A stretch of DNA of 64,000 nt from Candidatus Bathyarchaeia archaeon (GTDB taxonomy: Archaea > Thermoproteota > Bathyarchaeia > Bathyarchaeales > DTEX01): contig JAWBXL010000004.1 in the NCBI GenBank assembly GCA_038867895.1, forward strand, positions 3,117 to 67,116, given 5' to 3'. Shown here piece by piece: positions 7,554 to 64,000 of this stretch (positions are counted from its first letter, which is position 1; each line of letters starts with the position of its first letter). The notes below the pieces were generated by a model. That model did no database searches, had not been told where the DNA came from, and saw only the letters and a list, made by a program, of their open reading frames with translations. A program made the position numbers and the translations under genes.

Positions 7554-7700
7554 CTACTGGCTCTTCGGCACCTCGTAGAGAACATTATCCTCTGATAAAA
7601 TCAGAATATTACCGCATTTTAGGCACTTAAAATATTTATTAACGGACTTTTCACCCCTCTGCTCTCCTAAAAGCATAACTTCGCCATGCTCGCACTTCAT
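7554..7700 (-). CDS. small (48 aa) putative zinc-ribbon protein, below the ORF-track cutoff
   Basis: My own translation gives MKCEHGEVMLLGEQRGEKSVNKYFKCLKCGNILILSEDNVLYEVPKSQ, with C-x-H ... C-x2-C. An AT-rich TATA-like stretch lies upstream. Confidence 0.3.
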   Translation of the reverse strand: MKCEHGEVMLLGEQRGEKSVNKYFKCLKCGNILILSEDNVLYEVPKSQ

Positions 7701-7791
7701 TTCTTTTACCCGAAAGTAACATTAATCACTCCCCTTATATATTTATTTTTATTCTACTCATCTCAAGAAGAGAACATACTGGTGTGCACCC

Positions 7792-8904: not shown

Positions 8905-8920
8905 TGGATTACTAATTGGA

Positions 8921-11560: not shown

Positions 11561-11685
11561 CAGGGACGCCTTTTCACATACACATAAAAATTAACTGAAC
11601 ATAAAACTTACTTAAACAGAGGGTAATCACTGAAACTTTATATTGATAACTTTATATCCCTAAGTTATTGAAGAGTTGGGATTCT

Positions 11686-29646: not shown

Positions 29647-29648
29647 CT

Positions 29649-45470: not shown

Positions 45471-45716
45471 GAGAAAGGCGGAAGACTCTTCTCCTTTTCA
45501 TTTCCTTTTTAACGGAAAATTGCACATTTTAAAAAATTTAAGATCTTAATAAACTTAGTCTCTTCGAGAGCAGACGCATTTCTTTGCTTACGGTTTTATG
45601 ACAATGGATTATGTTAAAAACTTATAAATAATCTTATCATAAAATTATTCTCGGTTAAGAATAAAAAATGCTTGGATAATCCTTGGTTATATCATCAAAA
45701 ATTTGGGGGAAGCCTT

Positions 45717-48798: not shown

Positions 48799-49079
48799 CT
48801 CAAACTAAATTTAATCTCTCAATAAAATAAAGTTTAGATATTTTAATCCTTTTATTTTTTCGAATAAAAATTGGAAACCTTAATAACCATTTTAGAAAAA
48901 TGATATGCTCTCTAAAGATTCGTCTTCTTGATCCCTAGTTACTTTTAGCATTCTAATCAAAAGAACATGTTTACCAAGCAAAATTAGAAGGGGATTATAT
49001 TAGAATTCAAAAAGAAATTGTTAAAAGTAAGATTATAGTTTTTGTTCTCTAATATGGAAAAGAGGTAAACTATTTGGGA

Positions 49080-50324
49080 ATGCTTGATCCACTTCTCTCA
49101 ATGCTGATATCTTTTTGTCTTTTGGGAGTTATGCTTTACAAAAGAGTGAAGCTTGGGATAGCGTTGATAGTAACACCTATAGTTTTAGCTTTATTAGCGC
49201 TTAATTGGTCTGATATTCCAGAATTGCTTTATGCCACAGTGGATCCATTTAAGCAGGATGGTCTTCTTGCTCTATTAGTTATCCTTGCAACCTTTAGTTC
49301 ATCTTGGTTTAGTTATCTCTACAAGGAGACGAGGGAAGTGGTGGTTTTTAGTGAGGGATTAAGCAATATTATTAGGAGGCCGAAACTCATATTATTTTTT
49401 CTTCCAGCCATAATAGGTCTCATTCCAGTTCCTGGAGGTGCTTTACTTTCAGCGCCAATAGTGGAATCTGAATCTAAAAATCTTGGTCTTAGCTCGGAGA
49501 AGATGGCTTACATTAACCTTTGGTTTAGACACACTATTTTCCCAATATACCCGCTGAGTCAGTCTCTTATAGTGGTGGCTGCTTTAACGGGTATTTCGCT
49601 ACTTACAATACTTTTGCTTCAGATACCAGTTATTGCGATGATGGTTGTGGTTGGATACTTAATAGGCTTAAAGGGCGCCTCTTCCCCAGAGAATAGGAAA
49701 TCAAGAGTTTCTGGAGTGTCTTCAAGGTCAGCGCCATTTATAGCCTTTCTACCCCTCCTGACAGCGATTCTCCTAGCGGTTATTTTAGGCGCCATAAACC
49801 ATAAATTGTTTCAGCAGGGTCTCAATGTTGTCATAGCGTCTTTTACTGGTTTAGTGCTCTTGGCCGCTATATCACATTCAGACTTTAAGATTTTTATAAA
49901 ACCTTTAACAAATTTATGGGTTTATGATGTAACATTCGCCACTTATGGCGCTTTTTTACTTCAAAATGTCATAAAAAGCATTAATATAATTGACTTATTT
50001 AAGTCTATGGTCTTAGAGAGGATGATAAGTGAAGCATGGTTATTGACGATTATTCCAGCATGCTTAGGTTTCTTCATGGGCTCTCCTATGGGAGCAGGAG
50101 CCATCGCTATATCAATTTTTTCCAGTCTCTCTATTTTTTCGCCAAAATCTGCAGCCCTCTTATATGCCAGCGCATACCTTGGATATATAGTTGCACCAAC
50201 CCACCTATGCCTTGTCTTCACAGTTGATTATTTTAAAAGCTCACTAGCTAAAGTCTATGAATATATAATTCCATCATTCATTACAGCCTATTTGACAGCT
50301 CTACTCCTATACTTCTTGCTTTAA
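49080..50324 (+). CDS. DUF401-like polytopic membrane protein
   Basis: More than 10 TM helices. The family assignment is recollection only. The track start is TTG 49074. Confidence 0.5.
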   Translation: MLDPLLSMLISFCLLGVMLYKRVKLGIALIVTPIVLALLALNWSDIPELLYATVDPFKQDGLLALLVILATFSSSWFSYLYKETREVVVFSEGLSNIIRRPKLILFFLPAIIGLIPVPGGALLSAPIVESESKNLGLSSEKMAYINLWFRHTIFPIYPLSQSLIVVAALTGISLLTILLLQIPVIAMMVVVGYLIGLKGASSPENRKSRVSGVSSRSAPFIAFLPLLTAILLAVILGAINHKLFQQGLNVVIASFTGLVLLAAISHSDFKIFIKPLTNLWVYDVTFATYGAFLLQNVIKSINIIDLFKSMVLERMISEAWLLTIIPACLGFFMGSPMGAGAIAISIFSSLSIFSPKSAALLYASAYLGYIVAPTHLCLVFTVDYFKSSLAKVYEYIIPSFITAYLTALLLYFLL

Positions 50325-50403
50325 GAATTTTAAGAAAAATCTCTAAATCATGTAATAAGTTAAAAAATTTAGTTGTTATAAACTTTGTTCTTCTCTCATC
50401 CAT

Positions 50404-51543
50404 TTATTTGTTTAGTCCTAGCTCGCGTAGGATCTCTTTGTTATGCTGCCCGATTTCTGGTGGCGGGGATCTAATTTCCAGTTTAAAGTCTGAGAACTTT
50501 AAAGGTATTCCAGGCATCTTTACCTTTTTACCTTTATATTCAACCTCAACTATCATGTTTCGGTGGAGTAGTTGCGGATGGTTTAGGAGATCAAGTGTCG
50601 TATTAACTGGGCCGCAAGCTATTCCAGCGTTGATGAGGGCGTTTTCAAGATCTTTTGTCTTCCACTCTTTAGTTAGCTTCTCAATTAATTGAGAAAGCTT
50701 TTCTCTATTTTTGGCTCTACTTTCTCTTGTAGAGAATAAAGGATCATTCACGAGATAATCCGCCTTTAAGATTTCACAGAATTTCTTCCAAGCGTCATCT
50801 TCATAGGCGGCTATAAATATATAACCATCCTTTGTCCTATAAACCTGATAAGGTGCCCCAATTGGCGCTGCTGAACCCATCCTCTCTCTAACCTTACCAG
50901 TTAGGGAGCTCCACGCTATCCAGTATCCAGCCCACATTGATGCAACATCTAACATGGATATATCTATGTATTGTCCTCTCCCAGTCTTTTCTCGGTAAAT
51001 AAGTGCCGCAAGTATCGCTAATGCCGCGTATGCTCCAGTTCCATAATCAACTATCGATGCTGGTATTCTTGATGGTAAACATGGCTCTGGGTCCCCAGTC
51101 ATCGACATGAGCCCAGATTCGGCTTCTATAACTGGATCCCAAGCAGGGCGTTGATAATATGGCCCGGTTTGTCCATAACCTGAAATTGAGCAGTAAATTA
51201 TTCTAGGATTAATTGCCTTAACACTTTCATAGTCTAATCCAAACTTCTTCATAGTTCCTGGAACAAAGTTTTCAACCAGAACATCAGCCCTCTTTACTAA
51301 CTCAAGAGCGACTTTCTTCCCCTCCTCAGTTCTGAGATCCAAGGATATTCCTCTTTTATTCCTATTGTTAACTATGTATGCTGTCTCCAGCATATCAACC
51401 CAGTACCTTGCCCGATCCCCCCTAGGCGGCTCAATTTTAATTACATCAGCGCCTAAGTCTGCTAGAAGAGCTGCGCAATGCGGTCCGGCGACCTCATGTG
51501 TAAAATCAAGAACTTTTATTCCTTCTAATGGCGCCCTAACCAC
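50404..51543 (-). CDS. family III CoA-transferase (CaiB/BaiF/BbsF-like)
   Basis: PLEGIKVLDFTHEVAGPHCAALLADLGADVIKIEPP is a typical N-terminus. The length is 379 aa. Confidence 0.85.
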   Translation of the reverse strand: MVRAPLEGIKVLDFTHEVAGPHCAALLADLGADVIKIEPPRGDRARYWVDMLETAYIVNNRNKRGISLDLRTEEGKKVALELVKRADVLVENFVPGTMKKFGLDYESVKAINPRIIYCSISGYGQTGPYYQRPAWDPVIEAESGLMSMTGDPEPCLPSRIPASIVDYGTGAYAALAILAALIYREKTGRGQYIDISMLDVASMWAGYWIAWSSLTGKVRERMGSAAPIGAPYQVYRTKDGYIFIAAYEDDAWKKFCEILKADYLVNDPLFSTRESRAKNREKLSQLIEKLTKEWKTKDLENALINAGIACGPVNTTLDLLNHPQLLHRNMIVEVEYKGKKVKMPGIPLKFSDFKLEIRSPPPEIGQHNKEILRELGLNK

Positions 51544-51794
51544 GATTTTTCCCTCCCTAATCTTTAATCTTTTTGAATGATCTCAGTAATAATGTTTTCG
51601 TTAGCATGATTTGAAAGCATTGTTATATCTATAAGATGAAAAGTCTAAAAAGTATAGTTCAATTTTCCTTGCTGAGAATTTTTCTTAAGCGTGTGCTCCC
51701 ATGAAACCTTTTATGCGAATCATATATAAGAGCATCGATCCTAAAAGATTATATCGAAGCTGCAACCATTATCTTGGTTAGAAAGGTGATCAAT

Positions 51795-52676
51795 ATGGTG
51801 GGCGAGAAAGAGAAAGAAAAGTTGATGGAAGCATATCTCCATGGCTTCTTAGACAAGGCTCTCTTAGGAACTCGCGAGGATGCTCTGAAGAAGCCCATGG
51901 TGAAAATATTCGGAAAGGAAGTTGAGATATATGATCTATCCCATCCAGTCAGCGAAAGGACGCCGACATGGCCGTATGGCGCTGCAGGCATCGAGACATC
52001 TAGGTTGCGTTCCCATGCGCATGATCGTGTCCTCGCCGTAAAACTCTCCCATACTATGCATATGGGAACACATATAGATGCGCCTTTACACGTGGAGGAG
52101 GGTTACCCATCCATTGACGAGATGCCCTTAGAGCGTTATATCGGGGATGGAGTAGTTGTATCGATTCCTAAGAAGGAATGGGAAATAATAACCCCCGAGG
52201 ACCTTGAGAAGGCTAAGCCGAAAATAGAAGAGAATGACATAGTTATCATTAACACCGGCTGGCACAATTATTACGGAGACTATACTAGATACTTCTGTTT
52301 CGGCCCAGGGCTCTATAAAGAGGCTGCCGAATGGTTCGTGAAGAAGAGAGTTAAGGGCGTTGGAGTTGACCTACAAGCCATGGATCACCCATTAGGTACC
52401 AGACTTGTCCAGACGGGTGGCGGAATGCCTCCTCTTGAGCCATGGCTAATAGATCTCTATAAGAAAGTGACTGGGAGAGATGTTTATCAAGACTTTCCAT
52501 ACTGGGAGCCATGCCACAGACTCTTATACACACATGGAATCTTTGGAATAGAAAACATCGGCGGTGACATAGACAAGGTTACTGGTAAGAGATGCGTCAT
52601 TGCAGCCTTCCCACTTAAGTGGGTTGGTGGAGACGGATCAATGGTTCGGGTAGTAGCAATAGTCGAGAAAAAATAA
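51795..52676 (+). CDS. cyclase-family metal-dependent hydrolase (kynurenine formamidase-like fold)
   Basis: HMGTHIDAPLH (HxGTHxDxPxH). ATG 51795 follows AAGGTGAT. The track start is TTG 51774. Confidence 0.75.
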   Translation: MVGEKEKEKLMEAYLHGFLDKALLGTREDALKKPMVKIFGKEVEIYDLSHPVSERTPTWPYGAAGIETSRLRSHAHDRVLAVKLSHTMHMGTHIDAPLHVEEGYPSIDEMPLERYIGDGVVVSIPKKEWEIITPEDLEKAKPKIEENDIVIINTGWHNYYGDYTRYFCFGPGLYKEAAEWFVKKRVKGVGVDLQAMDHPLGTRLVQTGGGMPPLEPWLIDLYKKVTGRDVYQDFPYWEPCHRLLYTHGIFGIENIGGDIDKVTGKRCVIAAFPLKWVGGDGSMVRVVAIVEKK

Positions 52677-52737
52677 GTGGAAAATATTCCTGATGCCCCT
52701 AACATTGATGGATAGAGGTTTTCTCTACAAGCTTTTT

Positions 52738-53532
52738 TTATTTTCCCTTCCAAACTGGTTTTCTTTTTTCTAAAAATGCCTTTGCCCCCTCTTTTTGATC
52801 TTCCGTGCTGAATAACTGTGCAAAGATTTGCGCCTCATACTTAAAACCCTCTGTTAAACTCACTTCTAGAGCTGCGTTTATTGCTTCTTTTGCCGCTGCC
52901 AAGGCTACGGGACTCTTCTCCTTAATTTTCGCGATGAATTCGTTAACAGCATCCATAAGCTTATCCGCTGGAACAACCTTGTTAACTAAGCCCATCTGCT
53001 CCATTTCTTTGGCAGGGATTCTTTCTCCAGTAAATATGAGCTCTTTAGCCTTCTTCTCGCCGATAAGCCTTGGCAATCTTTGGGTTCCACCACCCCCTGG
53101 GATTAAGCCGAGGTTTATTTCTGGTTGGCCGAAGACAGCATCTTCAGAAGCAATTATTATATCGCATGCCTGAGCTAGCTCGAAACCAGCGCCTAGGCAA
53201 TATCCATGGACTGCGGCTATCACTGGTTTCGGAGCGTTTTTAATTATCTCAGAGAGGACTAATGCTGTCCCAACTTCTCTCGCCATGTTTAGAATATCAA
53301 GTGGCTTCATTTCTGCCATGGCGCGTATGTCCCCTCCAGCGCTAAAGGCCTTTCCAGACCCCCTTATAACAATCGCTAAAACACCGCTATCTCTGCTTGC
53401 GTCTTCTAAAGCCTGCTTCAGCTCCCTGCGCGTCTTAGCGTCAAGAGCATTATAGCGCTCTGGATTATTAAGTGTAATCCAGGCAACTCCATCTTTCTTC
53501 TCATATATAATGCGGCTAAATGTTGCACTCAT
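52738..53532 (-). CDS. enoyl-CoA hydratase/isomerase (crotonase) family protein
   Basis: GKAFSAGGDI, GYCLGAGFELA and the GQPEINLGLIPGGGGTQRL oxyanion-hole motifs. Confidence 0.9.
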   Translation of the reverse strand: MSATFSRIIYEKKDGVAWITLNNPERYNALDAKTRRELKQALEDASRDSGVLAIVIRGSGKAFSAGGDIRAMAEMKPLDILNMAREVGTALVLSEIIKNAPKPVIAAVHGYCLGAGFELAQACDIIIASEDAVFGQPEINLGLIPGGGGTQRLPRLIGEKKAKELIFTGERIPAKEMEQMGLVNKVVPADKLMDAVNEFIAKIKEKSPVALAAAKEAINAALEVSLTEGFKYEAQIFAQLFSTEDQKEGAKAFLEKRKPVWKGK

Positions 53533-53673
53533 ATTCGCTCCCTCTCTTTAAATATTTTCAGAAGAAGATTTTTATTTATTATTTTAGTTTTGTTTTGACG
53601 TGATTTTTAAGTTAAGTAAAGTTTAAAAGTAATATGGTTCTTGTATAGAGAAAGGAGGAAGGGGAGATAGTAT

Positions 53674-54096
53674 ATGAAGAAAGAGGTCCCGATAATGGAA
53701 GGCATTTTCGAGTGGCCTTCGGAGAATCCGAGGTTAATAGCGACGAGATGCCCACTTTGTGGAAGTATACAGTTCCCTAAGTCGAGCGTTTGCAATAACC
53801 CCGACTGCGACCATAGTGCGCCTGTAGAACAATGCTACCTAAGTACTGAGGGAACATTATATACATATACTATTCACGCCTACAGTTTACGAGAACCATT
53901 CGAGTATCATAAAGGGCCATACATAGTCGGCGCAGTTGAGCTGCCAGAAGGGTTAATTGTGGTTGGGAGAATCAAGGCGGAGGACGAAAAAATGTTAAAG
54001 ATTGGGATGAAAATGAAGTTAAAAATAGATAAGCTCTATGAGGATAGTGAAAATATCTATTTAGGTTATTTTTTTGAGCCGGTGGTGGAAAAATGA
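53674..54096 (+). CDS. DUF35 zinc-ribbon/OB-fold protein (thiolase partner, BbsA-like)
   Basis: CPLCGSIQFP...CNNPDC zinc ribbon followed by an OB-like segment. Its stop overlaps the thiolase start by 4 nt. Confidence 0.8.
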   Translation: MKKEVPIMEGIFEWPSENPRLIATRCPLCGSIQFPKSSVCNNPDCDHSAPVEQCYLSTEGTLYTYTIHAYSLREPFEYHKGPYIVGAVELPEGLIVVGRIKAEDEKMLKIGMKMKLKIDKLYEDSENIYLGYFFEPVVEK

Positions 54097-55313
54097 CTGA
54101 GAGCGCGATAGTTAGTGCGGCTATAACGGAATGGGTTGAAGCTGGCCATCCGACTCCTCTGCTAATAGATAAGTTAGCCGAGGTTACTGTGAGATCTCTC
54201 AGAGAAGCAAATTTAAGACCGCGCGATCTAGATGCCATAATTACGAACACCACAGCGATACCATTTGATAGCCCATCCTATATAACGACAAGCGCGCAGC
54301 ATTTTGCCCATAGGCTTGCAGAGAGGATCGGTGCTAAGGGAGCCCAATGCATTAATGTTTGCGCTGCGTGTGCAAGCGCCTCAATAGCTTTCGCTCTTGC
54401 CGACTCGCTCATAAAGACTGGCGCGATAAAAACGGCGCTTGTGGCGGGCGTTGATAATTCTCCACGAGGCTTCTACCTGCCAGGCCAATCCGTTCTTGAT
54501 CCCGATCCATATGCGGCTGCTATAAAGGTTATTGGGGCGACTAATCCAGCTTATTGGGCTATGTGGGCTAGGAGACGGGCATATGAAATGGGCCGGCCAG
54601 TTGAAAGCATTAAAGAGCTTATGGCGTTGGTGAAAGAGATAAACAGCAAGTATGGCTCTCTGAATCCCTATGCAAGATACAAGAAAATTTTCACTGTTAA
54701 GGATGTTTTGGCATCGCCTGTCGTTTGTGATCCACTACACCTTTATATGATATGTGCAACAAGCTCTGGCGGAGGAGCTGTGGTAGTTACAGAGATGGAG
54801 AAGGCAAAAAAGATAACTGATAAACCAGTAAAGATAGCGGCTTCTACTGTGGGTGGACCGATTTATGGCGAGCCTATGCCAAGATTGAGGGTTTTTTCGA
54901 CGAAGAATATTGAGAAGCCCTTTACTGAGTGGCGTCTTCCCATCGAGAAAGCCTATAAAATGGCTGGTATAACTGCCGAGGACATAGACATTATAGAGTG
55001 CCATGATACAAGCTGTTTTCACACGATAAACTGGATAGATCAGATAATGGGCTGGGAGCGGGAGGAGACCGATAAGCTAATAAGAGATAGGCAGATCGAG
55101 CATACCGGTATGGTCCCAGTGAACCTAAGCGGTGGAACAGCTTCATTTGGAGAGGCTGTGATGAGTCAAGCCTTCATGATGATACATGAGCTATTCAGGC
55201 AATTGAGGGGAGAAGCTGGCGAGAGACAGGCGAAAAAGAACCTTAAAATCGCGATCTTTACAGCCTATGGAGCCTATGGAGCATACGGATGCGCAATACT
55301 TGAAAAAGTCTAG
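54093..55313 (+). CDS. thiolase-like protein, SCP-x/BbsB type
   Basis: INVCAACASAS (Cys nucleophile), ECHDTSCF and GGTASFGEAV. It is coupled to DUF35. Confidence 0.8.
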   Translation: MTESAIVSAAITEWVEAGHPTPLLIDKLAEVTVRSLREANLRPRDLDAIITNTTAIPFDSPSYITTSAQHFAHRLAERIGAKGAQCINVCAACASASIAFALADSLIKTGAIKTALVAGVDNSPRGFYLPGQSVLDPDPYAAAIKVIGATNPAYWAMWARRRAYEMGRPVESIKELMALVKEINSKYGSLNPYARYKKIFTVKDVLASPVVCDPLHLYMICATSSGGGAVVVTEMEKAKKITDKPVKIAASTVGGPIYGEPMPRLRVFSTKNIEKPFTEWRLPIEKAYKMAGITAEDIDIIECHDTSCFHTINWIDQIMGWEREETDKLIRDRQIEHTGMVPVNLSGGTASFGEAVMSQAFMMIHELFRQLRGEAGERQAKKNLKIAIFTAYGAYGAYGCAILEKV

Positions 55314-55370: not shown

Positions 55371-56459
55371 TTAGATCTGCTCCATTAATATTTTCGCGAT
55401 TAAGTTGTTTATTTCGCCGCTTTTTATATCCTCGGATGAATCTCGTGTTCCCAATAATAGGTCTAGAACATGTTTAGTCTGGATATTTGGTTGTGTGTTC
55501 CAGAAGATCTGCGCGCAGGTATAGCAATAGACCACCATTAAATCCGCGCCAGTTGATGAGAACTCCTCCGTTCTCGCTGATGAAAGTTTTAATGTGAGAT
55601 TTGGGTCAGCTATAGAGGCCATGCCGCCAGCACCGCAGCATAAAGACTTTTCCCTAGAATGTTTCATCTCTATGATTTTGCAGTCTTTAAGTAGGCTTCT
55701 AACCTGTGTGGCTAAGATGCCCTCAAATCTATCTGGGCAGCTATCATGAATAGTTACTTTCAGGCCTAAATAATTTGTTTCTTTAATAAGGGTTTCGCCT
55801 AAGGTCTCATATACAGTTAAAATTCTATATGATTTTGGAAGAGAGTTTTTAAGATGATAGTAGCACATGGGGCATGCAACTATTATATTTCTACACCCGT
55901 GTTTTATAAAGTGATTTTCTAGGTTCAGGAGCCATCTTGAAGCTCTTTCGGTTAAGCCTATATCTGCTAATGGTTTACCGCAACATGTGTCGGTAAACCC
56001 CATACTGCAAAATTTCTCTCTAAGTCTCTGGTATACTTCCTTAACAGCTTCTGGAGAGTAAGAGGACATGGAGCATCCTGGAAAGAAAATGTATTCAAAA
56101 GAATCATTTTCTGGGAAACTATATGTTATTCCCTTATAGGTCTTGTAGGCTCTGGGAAAGAAGAGGGGATCATCTGGTAGAGAAAATCTATAATATATTT
56201 CGTTGGCCACGTATTTTGAGAAGGATCGTCTAGCGTGGGCGATTATCGAAGGAAAATCCAGGGTTTTTGGGCAAACAATTTTACATAGACCGCATAAAAG
56301 GCACTCCATTACATACCTTTTATTTTGGTCAATGCCGTTAAGGAGGTCCTTAGCGATATTCTTTGGCATCCAATTATATTTTGATAGAAAGGGGCAGTCT
56401 TCAACGCATAACTGGCATTCTATACACTCATCAAGAATAAGTTTGAGAGACTCATTCAT
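55371..56459 (-). CDS. Fe-S oxidoreductase with two ferredoxin-type 4Fe-4S motifs and two CCG domains (HdrD/GlpC/LutA-like)
   Basis: CIECQLCVEDCP and CLLCGLCKIVCP, then DTCCGKP and SLCCGAGG (CCG motifs). Confidence 0.8.
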   Translation of the reverse strand: MNESLKLILDECIECQLCVEDCPFLSKYNWMPKNIAKDLLNGIDQNKRYVMECLLCGLCKIVCPKTLDFPSIIAHARRSFSKYVANEIYYRFSLPDDPLFFPRAYKTYKGITYSFPENDSFEYIFFPGCSMSSYSPEAVKEVYQRLREKFCSMGFTDTCCGKPLADIGLTERASRWLLNLENHFIKHGCRNIIVACPMCYYHLKNSLPKSYRILTVYETLGETLIKETNYLGLKVTIHDSCPDRFEGILATQVRSLLKDCKIIEMKHSREKSLCCGAGGMASIADPNLTLKLSSARTEEFSSTGADLMVVYCYTCAQIFWNTQPNIQTKHVLDLLLGTRDSSEDIKSGEINNLIAKILMEQI

Positions 56460-56489
56460 TGATTATTCCTCCAAATAGATGTTTTTATT

Positions 56490-57689
56490 TCAAACATAAG
56501 TTATCATTCTTCCTCTTTCTGTTTGTCTTATAGCTATAGGCGGTTTAATCGATGTGATCTTATCTATCATCCGTCTTATCCTTTCAATATATTTTTTCTC
56601 AAGATCTAGATCAGTTTTAACAACTTTTTTTGCAACCTCCCCGCAATAGTTGCAATCGCCACAGCCGATTATGCATGGCGGGTTATTTTTCACGAAGAAT
56701 TCATACCATCCGTCGAGCGATCGATTATCAATTGAAATTTTCAGTAGAGGTAAAGGTTCAGCGTCTAGGTCAAACATGTCCCAGCAAAAATGCATGTAAG
56801 AATTATCAATGAGGGCATATATATCGCCATCATATCTCCCGGCAAGATAGGCTTCAATAAGTCTTAATAGATCATCTGCCGGCAGCCCTCGCCCGGCTAT
56901 CTTAATATAATCTATCCCTAATTGAGCATAATATTTAATATCCTCTGGCCTAATCCAAGGCGCCTTCATGATCTCCTTATGATCACTCAATCTCTTAAGA
57001 GTGCATCTCATGAATGGATATGGCTTATATGTAAATCCTATTGGATCATCTATTGGGCATTGAGAGACATGAGCCGTTATAGTGTTATGGTAAGTTCTAA
57101 ATGGACATTTTAGCAGGCAGCCATTATTGGCTATAACTTCCAGTTTAGCTCTACACTTCTCTCTTATTATTCTTAGCACTCTAAAGGACTTGTTGAGATC
57201 TTCGCTCAGCGTGAGTCTCGTAGCTCCTAAACTCTCATATGTCAACGCCCGATTCAAAGAATCTATATAGCATAGGGATGAAGCATTAACTTCGAACTGC
57301 GGGAAATTCTTCACCACATACTCAATAAGGTATGGTATGGCAATAATAAGTGTATCAACCTTAAACTCCAAAAGTTTCCTTAAAAGATCATTTAAGGCCA
57401 CCCTCCCCTCCTCCGTATACTCGGCGAGGCCCATGCATACTGGATTTAACGTGTAGGCGAACCTAATCCCGTAAGCATGAGCCTTCCCTATATGCCGGGC
57501 AAGCCTATCTTCACTTATATCTGGGAGAATAGTTGCTGGCCAACCAGTACCAAAAATAGAGAACTTAAATGAGCCATAAACCTCGTAAACGTAAGATCCT
57601 AAATCACGATATTTCTCATTCAAATTACCTATCCTTTCTAAAAAGGAGTCCTCAAAAGTTGTGGGAACGCAGAGCCTAATAATGGTCAT
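56490..57689 (-). CDS. divergent U32-family (UbiU/UbiV/collagenase-like) TIM-barrel protein with C-terminal Cys cluster
   Basis: VDTLIIAIPYLIEYV..FEVNASSLCYIDSLNRALTYESLGATRLTLSEDLN...LEVIANNGCLLKCPF follows the U32 core pattern loosely. C-terminal CIIGCGDCNYCG. A 30-nt gap separates it from the CCG protein gene. Confidence 0.5.
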   Translation of the reverse strand: MTIIRLCVPTTFEDSFLERIGNLNEKYRDLGSYVYEVYGSFKFSIFGTGWPATILPDISEDRLARHIGKAHAYGIRFAYTLNPVCMGLAEYTEEGRVALNDLLRKLLEFKVDTLIIAIPYLIEYVVKNFPQFEVNASSLCYIDSLNRALTYESLGATRLTLSEDLNKSFRVLRIIREKCRAKLEVIANNGCLLKCPFRTYHNTITAHVSQCPIDDPIGFTYKPYPFMRCTLKRLSDHKEIMKAPWIRPEDIKYYAQLGIDYIKIAGRGLPADDLLRLIEAYLAGRYDGDIYALIDNSYMHFCWDMFDLDAEPLPLLKISIDNRSLDGWYEFFVKNNPPCIIGCGDCNYCGEVAKKVVKTDLDLEKKYIERIRRMIDKITSIKPPIAIRQTERGRMITYV

Positions 57690-57864
57690 CTTTAAACACC
57701 AATATGAATATGAGCGCTCTTAGATTTTAGCGTTCTGAAGCATATTTGAGAGTCTTAAAGAATTGGGTGAAATCCTTTCCTCGTAACTAGGAATTTGGCT
57801 TATTCTCAGAAAGGTTTAAATTTATTAATTGCTATTTTAGGTAAGTTTAGGTTTAGGAGGATTC

Positions 57865-58140
57865 ATGATGATATTTCTGCCGCGGGCCTCTTTACCCCCG
57901 AAGCTTCAGATAATTGTTAGAAAGGTTGGGGAAAAAGACTATGAAATAACAACTGAACCTAAGCTGGAGCCAATGGTTTTCGCCACATTTGTTGTAACAT
58001 TTAAGCAGTGTGCGAAAAATTGCGTAGTTAAGCTCTCTGGCGGCAAACTTAATCTTTCTGGTGAAGCCCCTGACTTTAAAACAATACTTGATTGTATAAG
58101 TAGCCAGTCCCCAATACCAGTTGAACTTCAAATGGTTTAG
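57865..58140 (+). CDS. small protein of unknown function (91 aa)
   Basis: TAGGAGGA lies 4-5 nt upstream of the ATG. It is convergent with the radical SAM gene and overlaps its stop by 4 nt. The antisense ORF 57892-58131 is considered a shadow. Confidence 0.4.
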   Translation: MMIFLPRASLPPKLQIIVRKVGEKDYEITTEPKLEPMVFATFVVTFKQCAKNCVVKLSGGKLNLSGEAPDFKTILDCISSQSPIPVELQMV

Positions 58141-59504
58141 AGGAGAGATCTATACAATTTTTTCTTATCAGTTGCGGTCACATTATATAGGCAGAACGGT
58201 ATGAGCCTACCGTTACCTCTAACTTCATGGACACAGCATTTATTTAGTCTCTCAATATCTATCGTCCAAGCGTCCTGAGCGAAGTGACAGCCCACCGAGA
58301 AAAATCCCTCCGGCCTTAAATATTCAAGTAGAATCCTAAGGAAGGAACCAGCTGCTTGTGGTCTAAGATTCCTTGCGAACTCCCTTGAGATATTAAGCTC
58401 ATCCGCAATCGCCTTCAAAATGTCATCGAAATCCACAAATCTATTGGTTAATGAGTACTTATCTATTAGCTCCTCTACATCAACCAGTCTAGTTAAAACA
58501 TAAGGATTTCCATCTTCTCTAAGATAAGTGTAGAGAAGCGATGAGCACCTTGGATCTGGGCATGGAACAGGAATAAAATCAGTAGCTTTTATTTTCCCCT
58601 CACTTCCCCTCTCAATCTCTTTTTGAACATCACTTATAGTAACCCGATCTACTGGATCAAAGACTTTTGGGGGGTATCTTCCAAGGGCTGCAAATGGTTG
58701 AAAATTCACTCCTATCGCTCTCCTTTTAATAGCATATTTGATGATATTCCATGCCTGGTCATCATTGACGCCCTTTATGAGAGTTGCCGCTAGAGTTACG
58801 CTTAGACCTGCCTTAATGCAGTTTTCAATCGCTCTCTCCTTAACTTTTGTCAGGTCCCGTCCCCTTATTACCTGATAGACCTCAGGTGCTAAACCATCGA
58901 ACTGTAAATATACACCACTAATTCCATCGTCTGCTAGATCTTTGGCTAGGGCTGGATTTTTTGAAAGCTCTATTCCATTTGTATCCACCTCAATTAGCCT
59001 GAAGCCTAAGTCTCTAGCCAATCCAATAATTTCAATTAGATCATTTCTTATAGTGGGTTCTCCACCTGAGAACTGAATCGCTGTGGGTTTTCCCTCACAT
59101 CTTAAGAGGGCTTTGAGAATCTCCTCTATCTCTCCTATTGAAGGATTCCAGCTTGGCTCCTCTTGCGAGTCTGCGAGACATACTGGGCATAATAGGTTGC
59201 AGGTATCTGTAATTTCAAGTATCGCTAAGCAAGTATGCTGTCTATGAGATGGACAGAGACCGCAATCAAATGGGCATCCCCTCTCAGTCTCTTTGACATA
59301 AAATTCATTCGGCTTTTTGCCAACTCTAGAGAATTTTAAGGCTCTTTTGTACAAGTTCAGATCACTCCAAAGCAATGCCCGAGTAGATCCGTGTTCTTTA
59401 CAGTACTTCTCCATGTAAACCTGCTTTCCATCAGTGAAAATTCTAGCCGGAATAAGGTTTAGGCACAAGGGACATAAACTTTTGGTCTCGCTTAGAGTCT
59501 CCAT
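58137..59504 (-). CDS. radical SAM enzyme of the MJ0619/Tes (GDGT-MAS)-like family
   Basis: TKSLCPLCLNLIPARIF...YMEKYCKEHG, GCPFDCGLCPSHRQHTC, CNLLCPVC (CX3CX2C), QFSGGEPT, and the C-terminal HFAQDAW..ERLNKCCVHEV...RLIPFCLYN. This architecture matches my recollection of MJ0619. Confidence 0.65.
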   Translation of the reverse strand: METLSETKSLCPLCLNLIPARIFTDGKQVYMEKYCKEHGSTRALLWSDLNLYKRALKFSRVGKKPNEFYVKETERGCPFDCGLCPSHRQHTCLAILEITDTCNLLCPVCLADSQEEPSWNPSIGEIEEILKALLRCEGKPTAIQFSGGEPTIRNDLIEIIGLARDLGFRLIEVDTNGIELSKNPALAKDLADDGISGVYLQFDGLAPEVYQVIRGRDLTKVKERAIENCIKAGLSVTLAATLIKGVNDDQAWNIIKYAIKRRAIGVNFQPFAALGRYPPKVFDPVDRVTISDVQKEIERGSEGKIKATDFIPVPCPDPRCSSLLYTYLREDGNPYVLTRLVDVEELIDKYSLTNRFVDFDDILKAIADELNISREFARNLRPQAAGSFLRILLEYLRPEGFFSVGCHFAQDAWTIDIERLNKCCVHEVRGNGRLIPFCLYNVTATDKKKLYRSLL

Positions 59505-59597: not shown

Positions 59598-59861
59598 TTA
59601 GCTAATTAGTTTTAAGCCCATTTCAGTTGTTTTCCATTTTCCTTCCCAGCGAAGGCCACCTGTCTTCTCTAGTTCCCAGATAAAGTACGCTGGCCAAACT
59701 TTTGTCTTCTCATAGGTGGCTTTGAGATCCTCAAGCACAAACCGCTCTATCTCATTTTTTGTTTTTGGCTCGCGGCAGAACTTGAGAATCTCAGTATAAA
59801 TATTTCCAAATTCAGGATCGCGTAAAAGATCACCCAAAGTTTTCGTGACAACCCCATTCAT
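59598..59861 (-). CDS. small possible winged-helix protein (87 aa)
   Basis: ORF track. It lies on the same strand 93 nt upstream of the radical SAM gene. The wHTH call rests on a weak pattern only. Confidence 0.4.
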   Translation of the reverse strand: MNGVVTKTLGDLLRDPEFGNIYTEILKFCREPKTKNEIERFVLEDLKATYEKTKVWPAYFIWELEKTGGLRWEGKWKTTEMGLKLIS

Positions 59862-60206
59862 ATCCTCTCACCTTAGATTATCTATTTTAGCTTTGCAATT
59901 AATAAAATTTTATCTATTTTTGGCATTATACTTTGGAAATAAAGTTATTTTTCCAACCTCCAGGTTATACTTCGGTCTCTACTGGCCAGATTGCTGATAG
60001 GTTCTTTAGAAGTTTCCAGTATTTTTATAGGTGATGAAAGCAAAGCGGAAAGAAGAGCTTGAGTTTTGTCATAAAACTTCGCGAAGGAATGGTGAAAATA
60101 AAATCTTTTAGAGTCCTCATTTAAATATCTTTATGTTTATAAGTTAGAGAATGAAGACGTTAATCCAAGTGAAATTTGATGCAAAATATGTGGGGGTAAT
60201 ACGCTT

Positions 60207-60932
60207 ATGTCGAGCTTTGAAAGTTCTATCAAAGAAAGGCTAATTGTATGTTTTGGAGGACGGGAAAAATTGTATAAATTTTTAGGGAGAATATATGAGA
60301 AGGAAGTTGATGAGCAACTAATTAAAGAGTGCATTATACGCAAGGAATTATTTCTAAAATGTAATTTGATTAGAGAAGTGGATGCTGATATAATGGAAGG
60401 CTTCATGGAACTATACAAATACCTTAATGGGTTAAAAGTGGGGAACTTAAATGAGATTATACTGGAACTTGCAGTTGATTATGCAAACCTATTCTTAGGA
60501 GTTAAATATTTTCGTGAGAAGAAAGGGATACCTCATCCCTCAGAATCGGTTTACTTAACTGGTAATATGCTTAGCGAAGAAGAAACTATATCAGAAATTT
60601 ACTTGGAAGCAGGTCTCATTAAGTCTCCGGAATTTAAGGAGCCTTATGATCATATTGCACTTCAACTATATTTTATGGCCCACCTGTGTAAAAAGGCAAT
60701 TGACTTTGTAAAAAGTGGAAACCTGCAGGATCTGTTGAGAAATCTTCAAATGCAAAAGAGTTTTCTAAGCGAGCATTTGTTAAAATGGGTTCCGAAATTT
60801 GCTGGTGATGTGATAGAGAATTCAGAGACTAGTTTTTATAAAGCTATTGGAAAAATAACAAGAGGATTAATATGCATGGAAAAAGATGTGATAGAGGAAA
60901 TTATTGAGCAGGCTAAAAAATTATTACTTTAA
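60207..60932 (+). CDS. TorD/DmsD-family molybdoenzyme maturation chaperone
   Basis: LAVDYANLFLG...PHPSESVYL...EPYDHIALQLYFMAHL fits the TorD family pattern. Confidence 0.7.
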   Translation: MSSFESSIKERLIVCFGGREKLYKFLGRIYEKEVDEQLIKECIIRKELFLKCNLIREVDADIMEGFMELYKYLNGLKVGNLNEIILELAVDYANLFLGVKYFREKKGIPHPSESVYLTGNMLSEEETISEIYLEAGLIKSPEFKEPYDHIALQLYFMAHLCKKAIDFVKSGNLQDLLRNLQMQKSFLSEHLLKWVPKFAGDVIENSETSFYKAIGKITRGLICMEKDVIEEIIEQAKKLLL

Positions 60933-61792
60933 CCTTTTTCTAAGCCTATTGTTCCCAGATTTATGTCTTTACTCGTTAGGTATACGCCGAGAGTCTTACC
61001 TTTATAACCACTTTTCTCAATTTTAATTAAGTATTTGTGGTTCCATTCAAGATCTTTAAGCCAGAAGTCTCCTAATTCATCCGTGTTTGTCTCATGTTTT
61101 TCGCCAGTATATAAGTCTAGAGCGGTAACTTTAGCGTCGATCACGACCTCTTTCTCATCAAAATCTACCACGCAACCTGCAATAAAGGGTTTAGGCAAGT
61201 TTAGATAGCACACTCTTGGCCTCGTATTATATTCTCGCCCTATAACATCCGCGTTCCTTATTAATTCCTTGATTTTACTATCGCTTTCATCTCCGTAGAT
61301 TATTGCCCCCGTGGGGCACGCATCATGGCATCTAGGCCCGTATTTCCAATCTGGGTCATCAAGCAAATGAGAACATCCAGTACACTTTTGTGCGATTCCC
61401 AGCTCACTATTGAAATATATTATGTTATATGGGCATGCCTCAATACATAAAGGCTTGTTAACCCCTAATGGCTTACATCCATTACATTTGTTTGGATCTA
61501 TTAATACTATACCATCAGGCCTCTTAACTATGGCGCCTATTAAGCAGGCTCTCATGCATGGTGGGTTGTTACAGTGCATGCATAAAATCGGTATATATGT
61601 TACTTTAACTTTTGGTATTGATCCTCGTTCTTGCATATCAACTTTTATCCAGAATTGTCCATATTCGGGTTGTGGTTTAGAGTATGGGCTCCAGTCATTG
61701 CCGACAAACTCGTCTTTACAAGATATGACACAGCTCATACAACCTATACATTTATTCACGTCAATAATGAAAATTTTCCCCATCTTTCTCAC
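60929..61792 (-). CDS. 4Fe-4S electron-transfer (beta) subunit of a Mo/W-bisPGD oxidoreductase, with a C-terminal Ig-like/carboxypeptidase-regulatory-like domain
   Basis: Several CxxCxxCxxxC(P) groups (CIGCMSCVISC, CMHCNNPPC, CNGC...CIEACP, CTGC...CHDACP). The C-terminal ~90 aa beta-rich tail is AGCVVDFDEKEVVIDAKVTALDLYTGEKHETNTDELGDFWLKDL. Confidence 0.85.
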   Translation of the reverse strand: MRKMGKIFIIDVNKCIGCMSCVISCKDEFVGNDWSPYSKPQPEYGQFWIKVDMQERGSIPKVKVTYIPILCMHCNNPPCMRACLIGAIVKRPDGIVLIDPNKCNGCKPLGVNKPLCIEACPYNIIYFNSELGIAQKCTGCSHLLDDPDWKYGPRCHDACPTGAIIYGDESDSKIKELIRNADVIGREYNTRPRVCYLNLPKPFIAGCVVDFDEKEVVIDAKVTALDLYTGEKHETNTDELGDFWLKDLEWNHKYLIKIEKSGYKGKTLGVYLTSKDINLGTIGLEKG

Positions 61793-61794
61793 CT

Positions 61795-64000
61795 CTAGGT
61801 GACAAGATAAATTTCTGTTGTTGGGCCGATTATTGGATGCATTTTTCTCTTAAAGGCTTCAGGATACTTGCTCATCAACTCATTTATATCAACCTTTTTA
61901 ATATTTACAAGAATGCCGGAGCAAACCTGTTCTGGCACTCTTATCTCTTCTCCTGGCATATACTTGAAGGTTGGCGTCGGCATCAAAAGGTCAATTGCTC
62001 CTCCTCTATCGATCTTATCATCAACGCTAATCATATCAACTCTCGCTCCGTGGTCGATCGATATTGCCCCGGGGATAATCCTCTCAGTAATTATTGCTCC
62101 AGCGAGGGTTGATCCATAATCGTTATAGATCATTATTATATCTCCATCTTTAATGCCTAGTTTTTCTGCATCAGATGGGTGAATCCAGACTCCCTCATAT
62201 AAATATCCATCTGGTCCTCTGACCTTATAGATCTCTCTTAACCATATTATCTCATCCCCTTGCGAATGAAATCTATATCTTGGATGATTGGAGCAGACAA
62301 TGAATGGATACTTTCTCCTTTTAGTTGAAATAGGTAGCTCGTCATGCTCAATCCACCTGGCGACTGGAGGTCTCTCATTATCGGTAGGAGCATATTTTAG
62401 AGCTAGCTGTGACTGATACTCTATTTTGCCGCTGGGAGTCTCCAGATTACTTTTCGCTTTATAGAATTTGCTCATAAATGAATCATAAGTATCATATCCA
62501 AATTTTTTCTTAATTTCGACCCACTCTTCCCATGTGGGATGACTGTAGATCATTATTTTCTTTTTCGTCTTAAATTCTTCCCAGCTTATCCCATTCTTCT
62601 TAAATGCAAGGGTTTTTTCATAGAATTCTTTTAGAATCACCTCTGGATCTGGGAACTTTTCTATTAGTTCAGGCTTGTTAAATTCTTTTGCTAATCTTTC
62701 CGCAATCATTCGGTGAATCTCATAGTCGCTCTTAGATTCGCCGATAGGTTCGATACATTTATCATGATATGCTATTCCCACTATCTCTGAGCGGGCGCTT
62801 ACTACAAGGTCTGCAACCTCATGGTCCGTCAGCGCGGGTAAAACGAGGTCTGCAAATAATGCATCATTTTCAAACCAAGGATGTATTACTAGGTGAAATT
62901 CTATCTTTGGATTTCTGAGAGCCTCAATGAACTTATATCCATGCCAGCATGTCGTGTAGCATGCGTTTTCATTCCAGATCATTCTAATACCAGGGTGGTC
63001 ATCGGTTGGCGGATATCTATATTTCACGAAAAGATCCTCTACAACGTTAAATTGAGCGCCAGAACACCACCATTTAACTGGGGGATTTAATATTGCGTCT
63101 GGAACCAACGTCTTTATGAGAGGAATCGCTGGTGGAGGCTGCACCTTAAATGCATATTTTGTTCTTTCAATATAGGAGCGCGCTTCCTCAACCACTTCTG
63201 GGTAAGAAGGCAGCAATGACACATCTTTCATATTAAGTCTTGATGAAACCCAGAATCTCAAGAATTGTCTTCCGGGCTTCCCAAGCCCTTGCATCGCTAA
63301 AACATATGCCTCCATTCTACCCGCGATGTGAGAATAAGGTCCCCTGATCTTGCTGCCCCCATAAACGACGGCGAGAGAGGTTCTCTTTTTGGCCCATAGT
63401 CTAGCCAGCGCCTTTATTGTCCATTGCGGTACTCCAGTTATTTTCTCAGCCCACTCTGGAGTCTTCGGAATCCCATCATCTTCCCCTAAAACATGCTTTT
63501 TAAATTCCTCAAAACCCACGGTGCGCGTATTAACATAATCCTTATCGTAAAGTCCCTCTTTAATCCAAACATATGCTATAGCCAGATAGAGAGCGGCATC
63601 CGTGCATGGATTAACTGGAATCCATTTATCAGCCCAAACAGCCTCACTATAGTTTAGATCCGGAGATATTGCGATTATCTCAATTCCAGCCTTTTTAAGG
63701 GCCTCGCACAAGTGTGACACGTGCGAACTGAAACCCGCAGCCGTTGTTTCGGGGTCGCATCCAGAGAATATTACTACTTCTCCATACTGTAGAACATTAT
63801 CCCAAGCTCCATCTTGATATGGCTCCCCAAGCGTTGAATCAAAGCCCCATACTAGCTTAGCCCCCCAATAATAACCCTCCCAGCTATCTGGATTTCTAAT
63901 TTGTTGAGTCCAGCCGAATCCCAGGTGATCAAAAAGCATGTGGCCATAAAAGTGCATTGTATGTAAGAAGCCTGATTGACCGTGTCCGTCGCCCTGCACT
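61795..64000 (-). CDS. Mo/W-bis(pyranopterin guanine dinucleotide) oxidoreductase catalytic (alpha) subunit, DMSO reductase superfamily, 5' end outside the window
   Basis: The 734-aa partial ORF is open to the window edge. It has MopB-type domains and a C-terminal dinucleotide-binding barrel (DGDIIMIYNDYGSTLAGAIITERIIPG). A 2-nt gap separates it from the beta subunit. Confidence 0.85.
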   Translation of the reverse strand, partial: VQGDGHGQSGFLHTMHFYGHMLFDHLGFGWTQQIRNPDSWEGYYWGAKLVWGFDSTLGEPYQDGAWDNVLQYGEVVIFSGCDPETTAAGFSSHVSHLCEALKKAGIEIIAISPDLNYSEAVWADKWIPVNPCTDAALYLAIAYVWIKEGLYDKDYVNTRTVGFEEFKKHVLGEDDGIPKTPEWAEKITGVPQWTIKALARLWAKKRTSLAVVYGGSKIRGPYSHIAGRMEAYVLAMQGLGKPGRQFLRFWVSSRLNMKDVSLLPSYPEVVEEARSYIERTKYAFKVQPPPAIPLIKTLVPDAILNPPVKWWCSGAQFNVVEDLFVKYRYPPTDDHPGIRMIWNENACYTTCWHGYKFIEALRNPKIEFHLVIHPWFENDALFADLVLPALTDHEVADLVVSARSEIVGIAYHDKCIEPIGESKSDYEIHRMIAERLAKEFNKPELIEKFPDPEVILKEFYEKTLAFKKNGISWEEFKTKKKIMIYSHPTWEEWVEIKKKFGYDTYDSFMSKFYKAKSNLETPSGKIEYQSQLALKYAPTDNERPPVARWIEHDELPISTKRRKYPFIVCSNHPRYRFHSQGDEIIWLREIYKVRGPDGYLYEGVWIHPSDAEKLGIKDGDIIMIYNDYGSTLAGAIITERIIPGAISIDHGARVDMISVDDKIDRGGAIDLLMPTPTFKYMPGEEIRVPEQVCSGILVNIKKVDINELMSKYPEAFKRKMHPIIGPTTEIYLVT

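Follow-up and report, generated by a model that had tools for sequence, protein, structure and literature searches.

A putative four-cluster paralogue of pyrogallol-phloroglucinol transhydroxylase with a TorD-family chaperone in a Bathyarchaeia genome

A stretch of 64,000 nucleotides from a Candidatus Bathyarchaeia archaeon (GenBank assembly GCA_038867895.1, contig JAWBXL010000004.1, positions 3,117 to 67,116 of the forward strand; hereafter the window) ends in three genes, which encode a TorD-like protein, an iron-sulfur beta subunit and the C-terminal part of a catalytic alpha subunit (Table 1). These genes were found where a first-pass annotation of the same DNA had placed them, and were compared with pyrogallol-phloroglucinol transhydroxylase (TH; PDB 4v4c, the Pelobacter enzyme). 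We propose, with a probability of roughly 0.55, that alpha and beta form a cytoplasmic Mo/W enzyme for redox hydroxylation or dehydroxylation of a hydroxybenzene imported by an MFS transporter, which works beside a true TH and is matured by the TorD-like protein. The substrate would be a hydroxylated benzene derived from polyphenols and taken up by the MFS transporter, electrons would pass between the four-cluster wire of beta and a soluble partner, and the reaction would be a water-dependent hydroxylation or a reductive dehydroxylation, not a net-neutral hydroxyl shuttle. The product would then enter a phloroglucinol route, in which an SDR-type reductase, a cyclase-family ring hydrolase, a CoA-transferase and a thiolase lead to acetyl-CoA. 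The chaperone would bind a flexible tail of about 40 residues on apo-alpha until the cofactor is inserted.

The alpha fragment (61795-63999) comprises the 734 C-terminal residues and is ended by the window edge. It contains PF00384 (E = 8.5e-15) and PF01568 (E = 5.6e-16), which assign it to the dimethyl sulfoxide (DMSO) reductase (Mo/W-bisPGD, MopB) superfamily. Contigs L083/L089 (GCA_038842775.1, JAWBSJ010000022.1) and L084 are 99.98-100% identical to window positions 59834-64000, and the L083 alpha shows no mismatch to the fragment over its 734 residues. Because of this near-identity, they were used to extend the window, the window coordinate being the L089 coordinate plus 59833. The full-length alpha thus has 906 residues, and its gene runs to approximately 64515, outside the window. 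An N-terminal PF21423 domain (AhtL-like first domain), also outside the window, was recorded for P0001, a full-length orthologue of 93% identity, and is weak in the L083/L089 alpha. The AlphaFold2 (AF2) model of P0001 had a pLDDT of 88.8 and a pTM of 0.90, and it could be aligned with many structures of the superfamily. TH was the best solved relative of alpha both by sequence (E = 4.8e-84) and by fold (4v4c_A, E = 1e-63), and also that of beta by sequence (E = 2e-42, residues 8-282 aligned), so that the first-pass description of the enzyme as transhydroxylase-like was correct. The alpha motif RNPDSWEG aligns Ser211 (full-length numbering) with Ser175, the Mo ligand of TH, and flanks it with the equivalents of Asp174 and Trp176. 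This D-S-W triplet is invariant in 98 of 108 aligned family alphas. With its Ser ligand in D-S-W and with neither an FS0 motif nor a twin-arginine (Tat) signal, as detailed below, the window alpha falls in the RhL/PgtL family in the broad sense, whose members are cytoplasmic, Ser-coordinated enzymes hydroxylating phenols (PMC10100899).

Within this family, sequence comparison indicates that the window enzyme is a paralogue of TH and not an orthologue. TH residues 14-846, rebuilt from a HMMER alignment, were aligned with MAFFT together with 107 alphas from 82 related loci (denoted here by L numbers), which had been chosen by similarity to the window alpha. The window alpha is 33-34% identical to TH, and the beta is 35% identical. 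An unrooted average-linkage clustering of Kimura distances, which is not equivalent to a rooted maximum-likelihood tree, set a TH group of 8 members apart from a group of 89 members that contains the window alpha. The true-TH group (L001_1580, L083 alpha2, L038_5606, L044_12734, L063_13464, L065_3180, and L070_3307; 49-59% identical to TH) retains H144, H145, R/K153, D174, S175, W176, F468, and Y560, and carries the insertions GGxGGACRA at about 350-358 and GYxP...NHR at about 559-571. Five of the eight members, among them both Bathyarchaeia alpha2 copies, also retain Y404. The window alpha has a His equivalent to H144 (GDGHGQSG), whereas R153 is replaced by M/L, W354 falls in a 3-residue deletion, F468 is replaced by Ala, and the Y560 loop is missing; the pocket set of TH in the strict sense (H144, R153, Y404, W354, F468, and Y560) is hence not reproduced. 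RhL of the RhLS enzyme of Azoarcus (Aromatoleum) anaerobius belongs to the same broad family, and its water-using redox hydroxylation is the chemistry that we infer for the window enzyme. The first approximately 430 residues of RhL (A0N0U2), however, show a higher identity to TH (61%) than to the window alpha (37%), and carry the TH-clade motifs SHHQWGNIGY and GGLGAGFGGA. RhL and TH group together on this N-terminal part, and the window enzyme belongs to an uncharacterised sister group. This window-type clade is large, with at least 5114 database proteins at E ≤ 1e-20, and relatives are encoded in at least 563 of the 599 pattern matches listed from species-representative genomes. Its hosts include Bathyarchaeia, Nezhaarchaeota, Methanomethylicota, Alpha- and Betaproteobacteria, Dehalococcoidia, and others. 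A second pair (alpha2/beta2) lies approximately 2 kb past the window on the far side of the MFS gene, and by sequence it is the true TH orthologue, alpha2 being 59% identical to TH over 806 residues.

The beta subunit carries a Fer4_11 four-cluster ferredoxin region followed by CarboxypepD_reg (PF13620, residues 204-275, E = 1.8e-9). Its AF2 model, obtained from a 38-sequence alignment (pLDDT 88.7, pTM 0.82), folds the C-terminal region of about 85 residues into a seven-stranded beta-sandwich (residues 204-283, pLDDT 95-98). The top Foldseek match was 4v4c_B (E = 6e-27, TM 0.78 across the whole chain), whereas the remaining DMSO reductase-family betas aligned by fold to the ferredoxin part only. 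The C-terminal domain alone matched the transthyretin-like domain of carboxypeptidase D (5aq0, TMt 0.75-0.78) and the 4v4c_B counterpart, and such a sandwich was found in every one of the 58 TH-family betas aligned. The first-pass annotation had rightly set this domain apart from DmsB/NarH-type subunits; it is nonetheless a known hallmark of TH-family betas and not an oddity of the window beta.

The same 58 betas, each paired with its alpha, were compared in their Cys groups. All window-type betas have CCCC in all four groups, and the 16 Cys counted in the window beta agree with the four clusters assigned at first pass. TH and the true-TH-clade betas, including beta2, lack Cys4 of group II and Cys1-3 of group III, with the patterns CCC(A/G) and A(Q/K/R)(I/L/V)C, respectively, and thus hold three clusters. 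The distal fourth [4Fe-4S] cluster (FS4), the one lost in true TH betas, is ligated by the group III Cys together with C83. Other beta groups, such as that of L054, have a 3Fe-4S-like CxCC in group III, and the distal cluster was lost independently in the betas of L039, L041, and the Sporomusa locus L079. The 16-Cys beta therefore distinguishes the window enzyme from true TH at the sequence level. Taken together, the window enzyme resembles TH in a Ser-ligated bis-PGD alpha with conserved D-S-W and without FS0 or Tat signal, in the alpha-beta heterodimer, and in a beta composed of ferredoxin-like domains and a C-terminal seven-stranded transthyretin-like domain. It differs in the absence of R153, W354, F468, and the Y560 insertion, and in the presence of the distal cluster, a tail of about 40 residues and a TorD-family chaperone. 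TH catalyzes a net redox-neutral reaction with 1,2,3,5-tetrahydroxybenzene as co-substrate (PMC13039779). In the window beta, the wire is intact up to the distal position that TH has discarded, suggesting that the paralogue exchanges electrons with a soluble partner, and such an exchange would fit a hydroxylase or dehydroxylase better than a hydroxyl shuttle.

The pathway in which the enzyme may operate was examined through related loci. The gene order in L013 and L004 is (TorD)-alpha-beta-cyclase-SDR, followed by thiolase/DUF35, enoyl-CoA hydratase and CoA-transferase genes, and a window-type module abuts the same cyclase-to-thiolase block in L001/L002, which represent a sister species of 82% nucleotide identity. 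In L054, from a metagenome-assembled genome (MAG) of a spirochaete, a family alpha/beta pair is accompanied by SDR, cyclase, 3-hydroxyacyl-CoA dehydrogenase (3HCDH) and BKACE genes. These are the same four protein families as PGR, DPGC, TfD, and TAL of Clostridium scatologenes, which turn phloroglucinol into acetoacetate and acetyl-CoA, and the characterised DPGC is included in PF04199, the family of the cyclase (PMC10470551). The archaeal SDR and cyclase are 48% and 38% identical to those of L054, respectively, and the archaeal block has CoA-transferase and thiolase in place of the dehydrogenase and BKACE. Such a block fits the older CoA-dependent scheme reportedly proposed for Pelobacter by Brune and Schink (1992). 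In L013, L004, and L054, the alphas encoded beside cyclase and SDR lie outside the true-TH group, so that some members outside this group presumably deliver phloroglucinol. The window itself contains the cyclase, CoA-transferase, hydratase, DUF35, and thiolase genes, and the block 50404..55313 may encode the steps from the ring-cleavage product to acetyl-CoA. PDB searches did not identify the function of the cyclase, which matched isatin hydrolase and kynurenine formamidase only, or that of the SDR, for which generic gluconate 5-dehydrogenase and FabG were obtained.

These data also bear on whether the window enzyme is a second TH of identical function, transferring hydroxyl groups between phenols without net redox change and with 1,2,3,5-tetrahydroxybenzene as co-substrate. 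This explanation has to be taken seriously, but we regard it as unlikely. The closest solved relative of both subunits is TH itself, with D174, S175, W176 and probably H144 conserved, and yet the identity is only 33-34%, R153, W354, F468 and the Y560-bearing loop are missing, and the 59% identical orthologue with its signature residues is encoded next door. In L013, L004, and L054, related enzymes outside the TH clade are encoded just upstream of cyclase and SDR, and the examined flanks contain no true TH, so that some such members presumably supply phloroglucinol; MAG surveys also routinely label such genes PgthAB. The beta of the window enzyme, however, keeps the fourth cluster lost in every true-TH-clade beta, and two neighbours of the same function, one of them with a dedicated chaperone, would be unparsimonious.

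Slightly less probable is a substrate other than a hydroxybenzene, e.g., a small oxo- or hydroxy-compound, in which case the proximity of phloroglucinol genes would be coincidental. The alpha- and betaproteobacterial members, 53-56% identical, adjoin genes for FAD-binding proteins, 2-hydroxyacid dehydrogenase, TctC and enoyl-CoA hydratase with no aromatic-pathway genes. The neighbours also vary in the archaeal orthologous loci L003, L005, L016, and L025, and the module has been translocated between sister genomes. Beside the close archaeal orthologues, genes for MFS, MatE, flavin reductase, nitroreductase, chaperonin and an Sdh-like flavoprotein were observed. Against such a substrate, both characterised family members, TH and RhL, act on hydroxybenzenes, and the module is syntenic with true TH in L083/L089 and L001 and with cyclase and SDR in L001, L002, L004, and L013.

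A further idea, which we hold only as a speculation of low probability, is that the four-cluster paralogue makes or recycles the 1,2,3,5-tetrahydroxybenzene co-substrate for the adjacent TH and so acts as its "priming" partner. To our knowledge, the biological source of this tetrol, which TH needs in catalytic amounts, has never been identified. The paralogue would form it by water-dependent oxidative hydroxylation of pyrogallol or phloroglucinol or, alternatively, would reductively dehydroxylate the tetrol to phloroglucinol, and the electrons would travel along its four clusters to a soluble carrier, for which the adjacent FwdF-like polyferredoxin is a candidate. All eight of the eight true-TH members with genomic context, from Bathyarchaeia and Dehalococcoidia, adjoin a second family pair whose distal cluster is complete or of the 3Fe type, a count from a biased sample because the loci were picked by similarity to the window alpha. 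Co-substrate supply would explain this pairing, as well as the occurrence of the distal cluster and the dedicated chaperone in the redox-active paralogue only.

Several observations weigh against the proposed redox (de)hydroxylase of hydroxybenzenes. The SDR gene, which sits between the cyclase and the enoyl-CoA hydratase/thiolase genes in L001 (19484-20285), L002, L004, and L013, is missing at window positions 52677-52737, where 57 bp stand in place of approximately 800 bp in the relatives, and no SDR homologue was found across the 64 kb. The phloroglucinol route may hence be incomplete, broken or rewired in this genome. The alpha-beta-TorD module is translocated and inverted relative to L001/L002 (window 47659-55313 versus L001 14554-22721); it abuts an FBPase gene in L001/L002 and lies past the thiolase in the window, beyond the CCG, U32, radical SAM and p87 genes, so that its 8-kb distance to the cyclase block is weak evidence by itself. 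Bacterial members of the clade adjoin FAD-binding proteins, 2-hydroxyacid dehydrogenases and TctC receptors. Conserved-neighbour clustering of the window-type clade yielded FAD_binding_2, 2-Hacid_dh, TctC and ABC ATPase clusters, which give no substrate clue, and no aromatic-pathway genes beside these bacterial members; the clade may thus extend beyond phenols. No redox partner is conserved beside the close relatives, the candidates being the polyferredoxin in L083 and L001 and the HdrC-like and CCG proteins in L013. Four clusters are no proof of electron flow, as TH itself retains three without a known role. The equivalent of Y404 is ambiguous, as HMMER pairs it with a near-invariant Tyr in "SYPE" and MAFFT with a Val, and the pocket roles of H144, R153, Y404, Y560 and others are reportedly those given by Messerschmidt et al. 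(2004). Finally, sequence alone yields neither the substrate nor the activity.

Automatic JGI annotation labels homologues of the window alpha "trimethylamine-N-oxide reductase (cytochrome c)", which would place the enzyme among the S- and N-oxide reductases of the DorA/TorA/BisC type. We consider this very unlikely. The top NCBIfam match of alpha was bisC_fam (267 bits for the fragment, 318 at full length), followed by TorA, and DorA, TorA, and MtsZ were the next fold matches after TH (E ~1e-51, model of P0001). Like the window alpha, these enzymes have a Ser ligand and no FS0, and DMSO can serve TH preparations as an oxygen donor. The scores, however, fall far below the cutoffs (bisC_fam 318 versus 1017 bits, TorA 266 versus 909); NCBIfam holds no model for TH, RhL, PGR or DPGC, and every match obtained was below its cutoff. 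Such type III enzymes are also monomers without a beta, whereas a translationally adjacent TH-type beta is kept in all full loci of the window-type clade, and TorA and DorA are Tat-exported, unlike the window alpha with no Tat signal.

The N-terminus of alpha, MVSTGFYGFLAGALPTENFSSPLKEASREEIEEIKKFKNEIKVEYLPSGLGG, contains one Arg and no RR, and no Cys occurs in residues 1-74 of the full-length alpha from the extension contigs. Accordingly, neither a Tat signal nor an FS0 motif is present. The region between 59.9 and 64 kb encodes no membrane protein, and only short antisense open reading frames (ORFs) nested within the three genes were found there besides these genes. No NrfD/DmsC-type anchor or cytochrome gene occurs in the approximately 6.7 kb past the window end, which hold the MFS transporter, the second alpha/beta pair and the polyferredoxin, or within 10 kb in the closest orthologous loci. 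Of membrane proteins, only transporters (MFS, MatE) recur next to alpha-beta in L001-L005, L016, and L025, and no membrane subunit is conserved there. This sequence evidence supports a cytoplasmic, soluble alpha-beta pair. The first-pass annotation had suggested a soluble enzyme after seeing no anchor or cytochrome b gene at 59.9-64 kb, and the recovered alpha N-terminus and the neighbouring genes uphold that view, with neither an anchor past 64000 nor an alpha of a respiratory clade. The Tat, FS0, and anchor features of respiratory complexes of the DmsABC/Psr/Ttr/Nar type are thus lacking. That the pair is the catalytic module of a membrane-bound DmsABC/Psr/Ttr-type respiratory reductase with its anchor encoded elsewhere is scarcely credible, since its N-terminus is predicted to be soluble and flexible, no anchor or cytochrome lies nearby and alpha clusters with the cytoplasmic TH/RhL group, even though the ferredoxin part of beta resembles TtrB, ArrB, DmsB, and PsrB, a four-cluster wire is typical of respiratory enzymes, and the distant loci L066, L077, L045, L059, and L081 encode proteins of 300-325 residues with 6-7 predicted transmembrane helices beside other alpha types.

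The TorD-like protein belongs to the Nitrate_red_del family (PF02613, 84.7 bits versus a cutoff of 22.2), and its sole PDB match was TorD (1n1c, E = 9.5e-15). It scored below the NCBIfam equivalog cutoffs of TorD (93.1 versus 132 bits), DmsD (27 versus 162), and EbdD (30 versus 360). A database search gave 81 homologue clusters, of which the named ones are all archaeal. A hidden Markov model built from 72 homologues of this protein matched 8 of the 82 TH-family loci, i.e., L001, L002, L003, L005, L013, L025, L031, and L036. Six of these are named Bathyarchaeia/Bathyarchaeota, Nezhaarchaeota or Methanomethylicota, L001 and L002 carry a Bathyarchaeia-annotated protein, and the record of L031 reads uncultured Nitrosopumilales. 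In two archaeal MAGs, TorD and alpha are fused in frame (L031 9290-12691 and L036 249-3686; 1133 and 1145 residues) in the domain order PF02613, PF21423, PF00384, PF01568. In 7 of 7 alphas that have a TorD gene close by, the conserved "VEYLPSGLGG" core is preceded by 50-69 residues, and 95 other alphas have a median of 27, a value that can only be too high as maximal ORFs were used. The L016 alpha, at 81% identity to that of the window, lacks both the tail and a flanking TorD gene, and the tail is also absent from the true-TH alpha2. The tail of about 40 residues follows the pattern (S/D)FYxxLxE ... PLKE(V/A)S.EE, and in the P0001 model it was predicted to be flexible (pLDDT 38-51) with two short helices. 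No twin-arginine remnant was recognised in it.

NarJ binds the non-exported N-terminus of NarG. By analogy, the co-variation of tail and chaperone and the natural fusions suggest that the window chaperone holds apo-alpha via its N-terminal tail. It shares with NarJ, TorD, and DmsD the PF02613 domain, a gene beside the presumed client, and a client N-terminal peptide that co-varies with the chaperone, and differs in scoring below the NCBIfam TorD cutoff, in forming a small group, and in its fusion to the client in two MAGs. We know of no TorD-family chaperone described for the TH family. No TorD-family gene was found in any bacterial locus of the set. In the spirochaete locus L054, the gene that comes immediately after beta (11529-12104) encodes an FmdE-domain protein containing a treble-clef zinc finger, and in view of the missing bacterial TorD genes, FmdE-like proteins might be a bacterial accessory or maturation factor.

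The coordinates of the genes and features are compiled in Table 1. The TorD and beta genes are convergent and overlap by 4 bp, although the first-pass annotation had called the former divergent. The beta ORF with its listed start begins three bases past the alpha stop codon on the minus strand. This mechanically called ORF (60929-61792) starts at GTG 61792 and gives the 287 residues reported at first pass; the true start is most likely ATG 61783 (MGKIF..., 284 residues), judging from an AGGTGA located 8 nt 5' of it and from the 284-residue database protein P0121, which is identical to beta. The p87 and TorD genes are divergent and separated by an AT-rich spacer of 345 bp. A p87 homologue of 53% identity sits between two alpha/beta pairs in L004 (3415-3717), and p87 had no match in Pfam or the PDB; at TH-family loci it may act as a small regulatory or accessory protein.

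Table 1. Genes and features of the alpha-beta-TorD module, the candidate phloroglucinol block and the extension contig, in window coordinates.
Feature	Position	Strand	Basis or remark
TorD/NarJ-family maturation chaperone (putative), 241 aa	60207..60932	+	PF02613, E = 8e-24
Beta (electron-transfer) subunit, 284 aa from ATG 61783	60929..61783	-	Fer4_11, E = 6e-23; CarboxypepD_reg
Beta Cys group III, C103-x2-C106-x9-C116-x3-C120	61433..61486	-	Alignment of 58 betas
Beta C-terminal transthyretin-like/Ig-like beta-sandwich, residues 204-287 (287-aa numbering)	60932..61183	-	PF13620; model
Alpha (catalytic Mo/W-bisPGD) subunit, residues 173-906 of 906	61795..64000	-	Molybdopterin and Molydop_binding domains
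NPDSWEG motif of alpha, putative metal-ligand Ser	63874..63894	-	HMMER alignment to 4v4c_A
p87, 87-aa protein, putatively module-associated	59598..59861	-	L004 homologue, 53% identity; association weak
"Cyclase"-family (PF04199) protein, candidate dihydrophloroglucinol cyclohydrolase	51774..52676	+	PF04199, E = 4e-39
CoA-transferase III	50404-51543	-	Pfam
Enoyl-CoA hydratase	52738-53532	-	Pfam
DUF35 protein	53674-54096	+	Pfam
SCP-x-type thiolase	54093-55313	+	Pfam
MFS transporter	~64681-65862	- (as alpha)	Extension contig, beyond window
Second alpha (alpha2), 856 aa	~66337-68907	+ (divergent)	Extension contig
Second beta (beta2), 283 aa	~68908-69759	+	Extension contig
FwdF-like polyferredoxin	~69865-70758	-	Extension contig

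The soluble catechol dehydroxylases Dodh and Cldh of Gordonibacter are comparable to the window enzyme in having no Tat signal, a small FeS subunit and an adjacent MFS transporter, and they act on phenolic hydroxyls with many paralogues per genome (PMC7028382). They differ in belonging to a bis-MGD clade nearest acetylene hydratase, "clustering away from" TH (PMC7028382), and their FeS subunit has no C-terminal sandwich. Up to 4-5 TH-family alphas per approximately 20 kb were observed in L038, L044, L063, L065, L067, L070, and L077 (Dehalococcoidia, Desulfatiglans and other bacteria). These alphas are of different active-site types, and the distal site of the betas has four Cys, CxCC or is lost. 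Such multi-copy loci resemble a substrate diversification, as in the catechol dehydroxylase expansions of gut Actinobacteria.

Other genes of these loci were also recorded. Directly upstream of TorD-alpha-beta-cyclase-SDR in L013, and on the same strand, are genes for HdrC-like (Fer4_8), HdrB-like (CCG) and DUF1284 proteins (7260-9048). An ABC transporter, composed of a substrate-binding protein and two permeases, lies between alpha2 and the MFS gene in L001. The minus strand of the window at 55371-59504 encodes an HdrD-like Fer4+CCG protein (362 residues), a U32-family protein (399 residues) and a TrsS/Tes-like radical SAM protein (455 residues), the last of which fell short of the NF045646 cutoff (426 versus 490 bits). 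U32 proteins have been proposed as O2-independent, prephenate-dependent hydroxylases (PMC10990095). In L059 and L045, TrsS-like and CCG genes are again present, together with a seven-transmembrane protein and a distant DMSO reductase-family alpha. Neither a gallate decarboxylase nor a tannase was found among the window ORFs scanned. The regions 2457-5318, 14739-17136, 27257-30641, 31337-33607, and 45672-47582 contain mostly housekeeping genes, including a Fwd-like molybdopterin subunit fragment, FTR, chorismate and EPSP synthases, histidine biosynthesis genes and an aldehyde:ferredoxin oxidoreductase (AOR). The window also encodes a 756-residue surface-type protein with DUF7507, SdrD_B, and CarboxypepD_reg repeats.

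Bathyarchaeia rank with the most abundant archaea of anoxic sediments and have repeatedly been proposed as degraders of lignin aromatics, for which few concrete enzymes are at hand. A literature search found no paper tying Bathyarchaeia to TH or the phloroglucinol pathway. The TH/RhL family, the transthyretin-like beta domain and soluble bis-PGD enzymes are already known, and homologues have been annotated as "pyrogallol hydroxytransferase" or PgthAB in studies of Chloroflexi, SAR116, and peat MAGs. What is new is a distinct uncharacterised clade with diagnostic markers and a four-cluster beta, a TorD-family chaperone with a co-varying tail and natural fusions, and the pairing with true TH in Bathyarchaeia. 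A hot-spring Bathyarchaeia genome thus holds a true TH orthologue together with an uncharacterised four-cluster paralogue that has its own chaperone, and in close relatives there is an operon-like link to a candidate phloroglucinol reductase and ring hydrolase, then to CoA-transferase and thiolase. Surveys that label all homologues PgthAB probably merge at least two functionally different clades; simple markers to separate them are the SSHHxWG motif and the Y560 loop of alpha and the number of Cys groups in beta (three versus four). The chaperone, the tail and the natural fusions provide a new system for the maturation of cytoplasmic bis-PGD enzymes, and the paired arrangement offers a testable handle on the source of the tetrahydroxybenzene co-substrate of TH.

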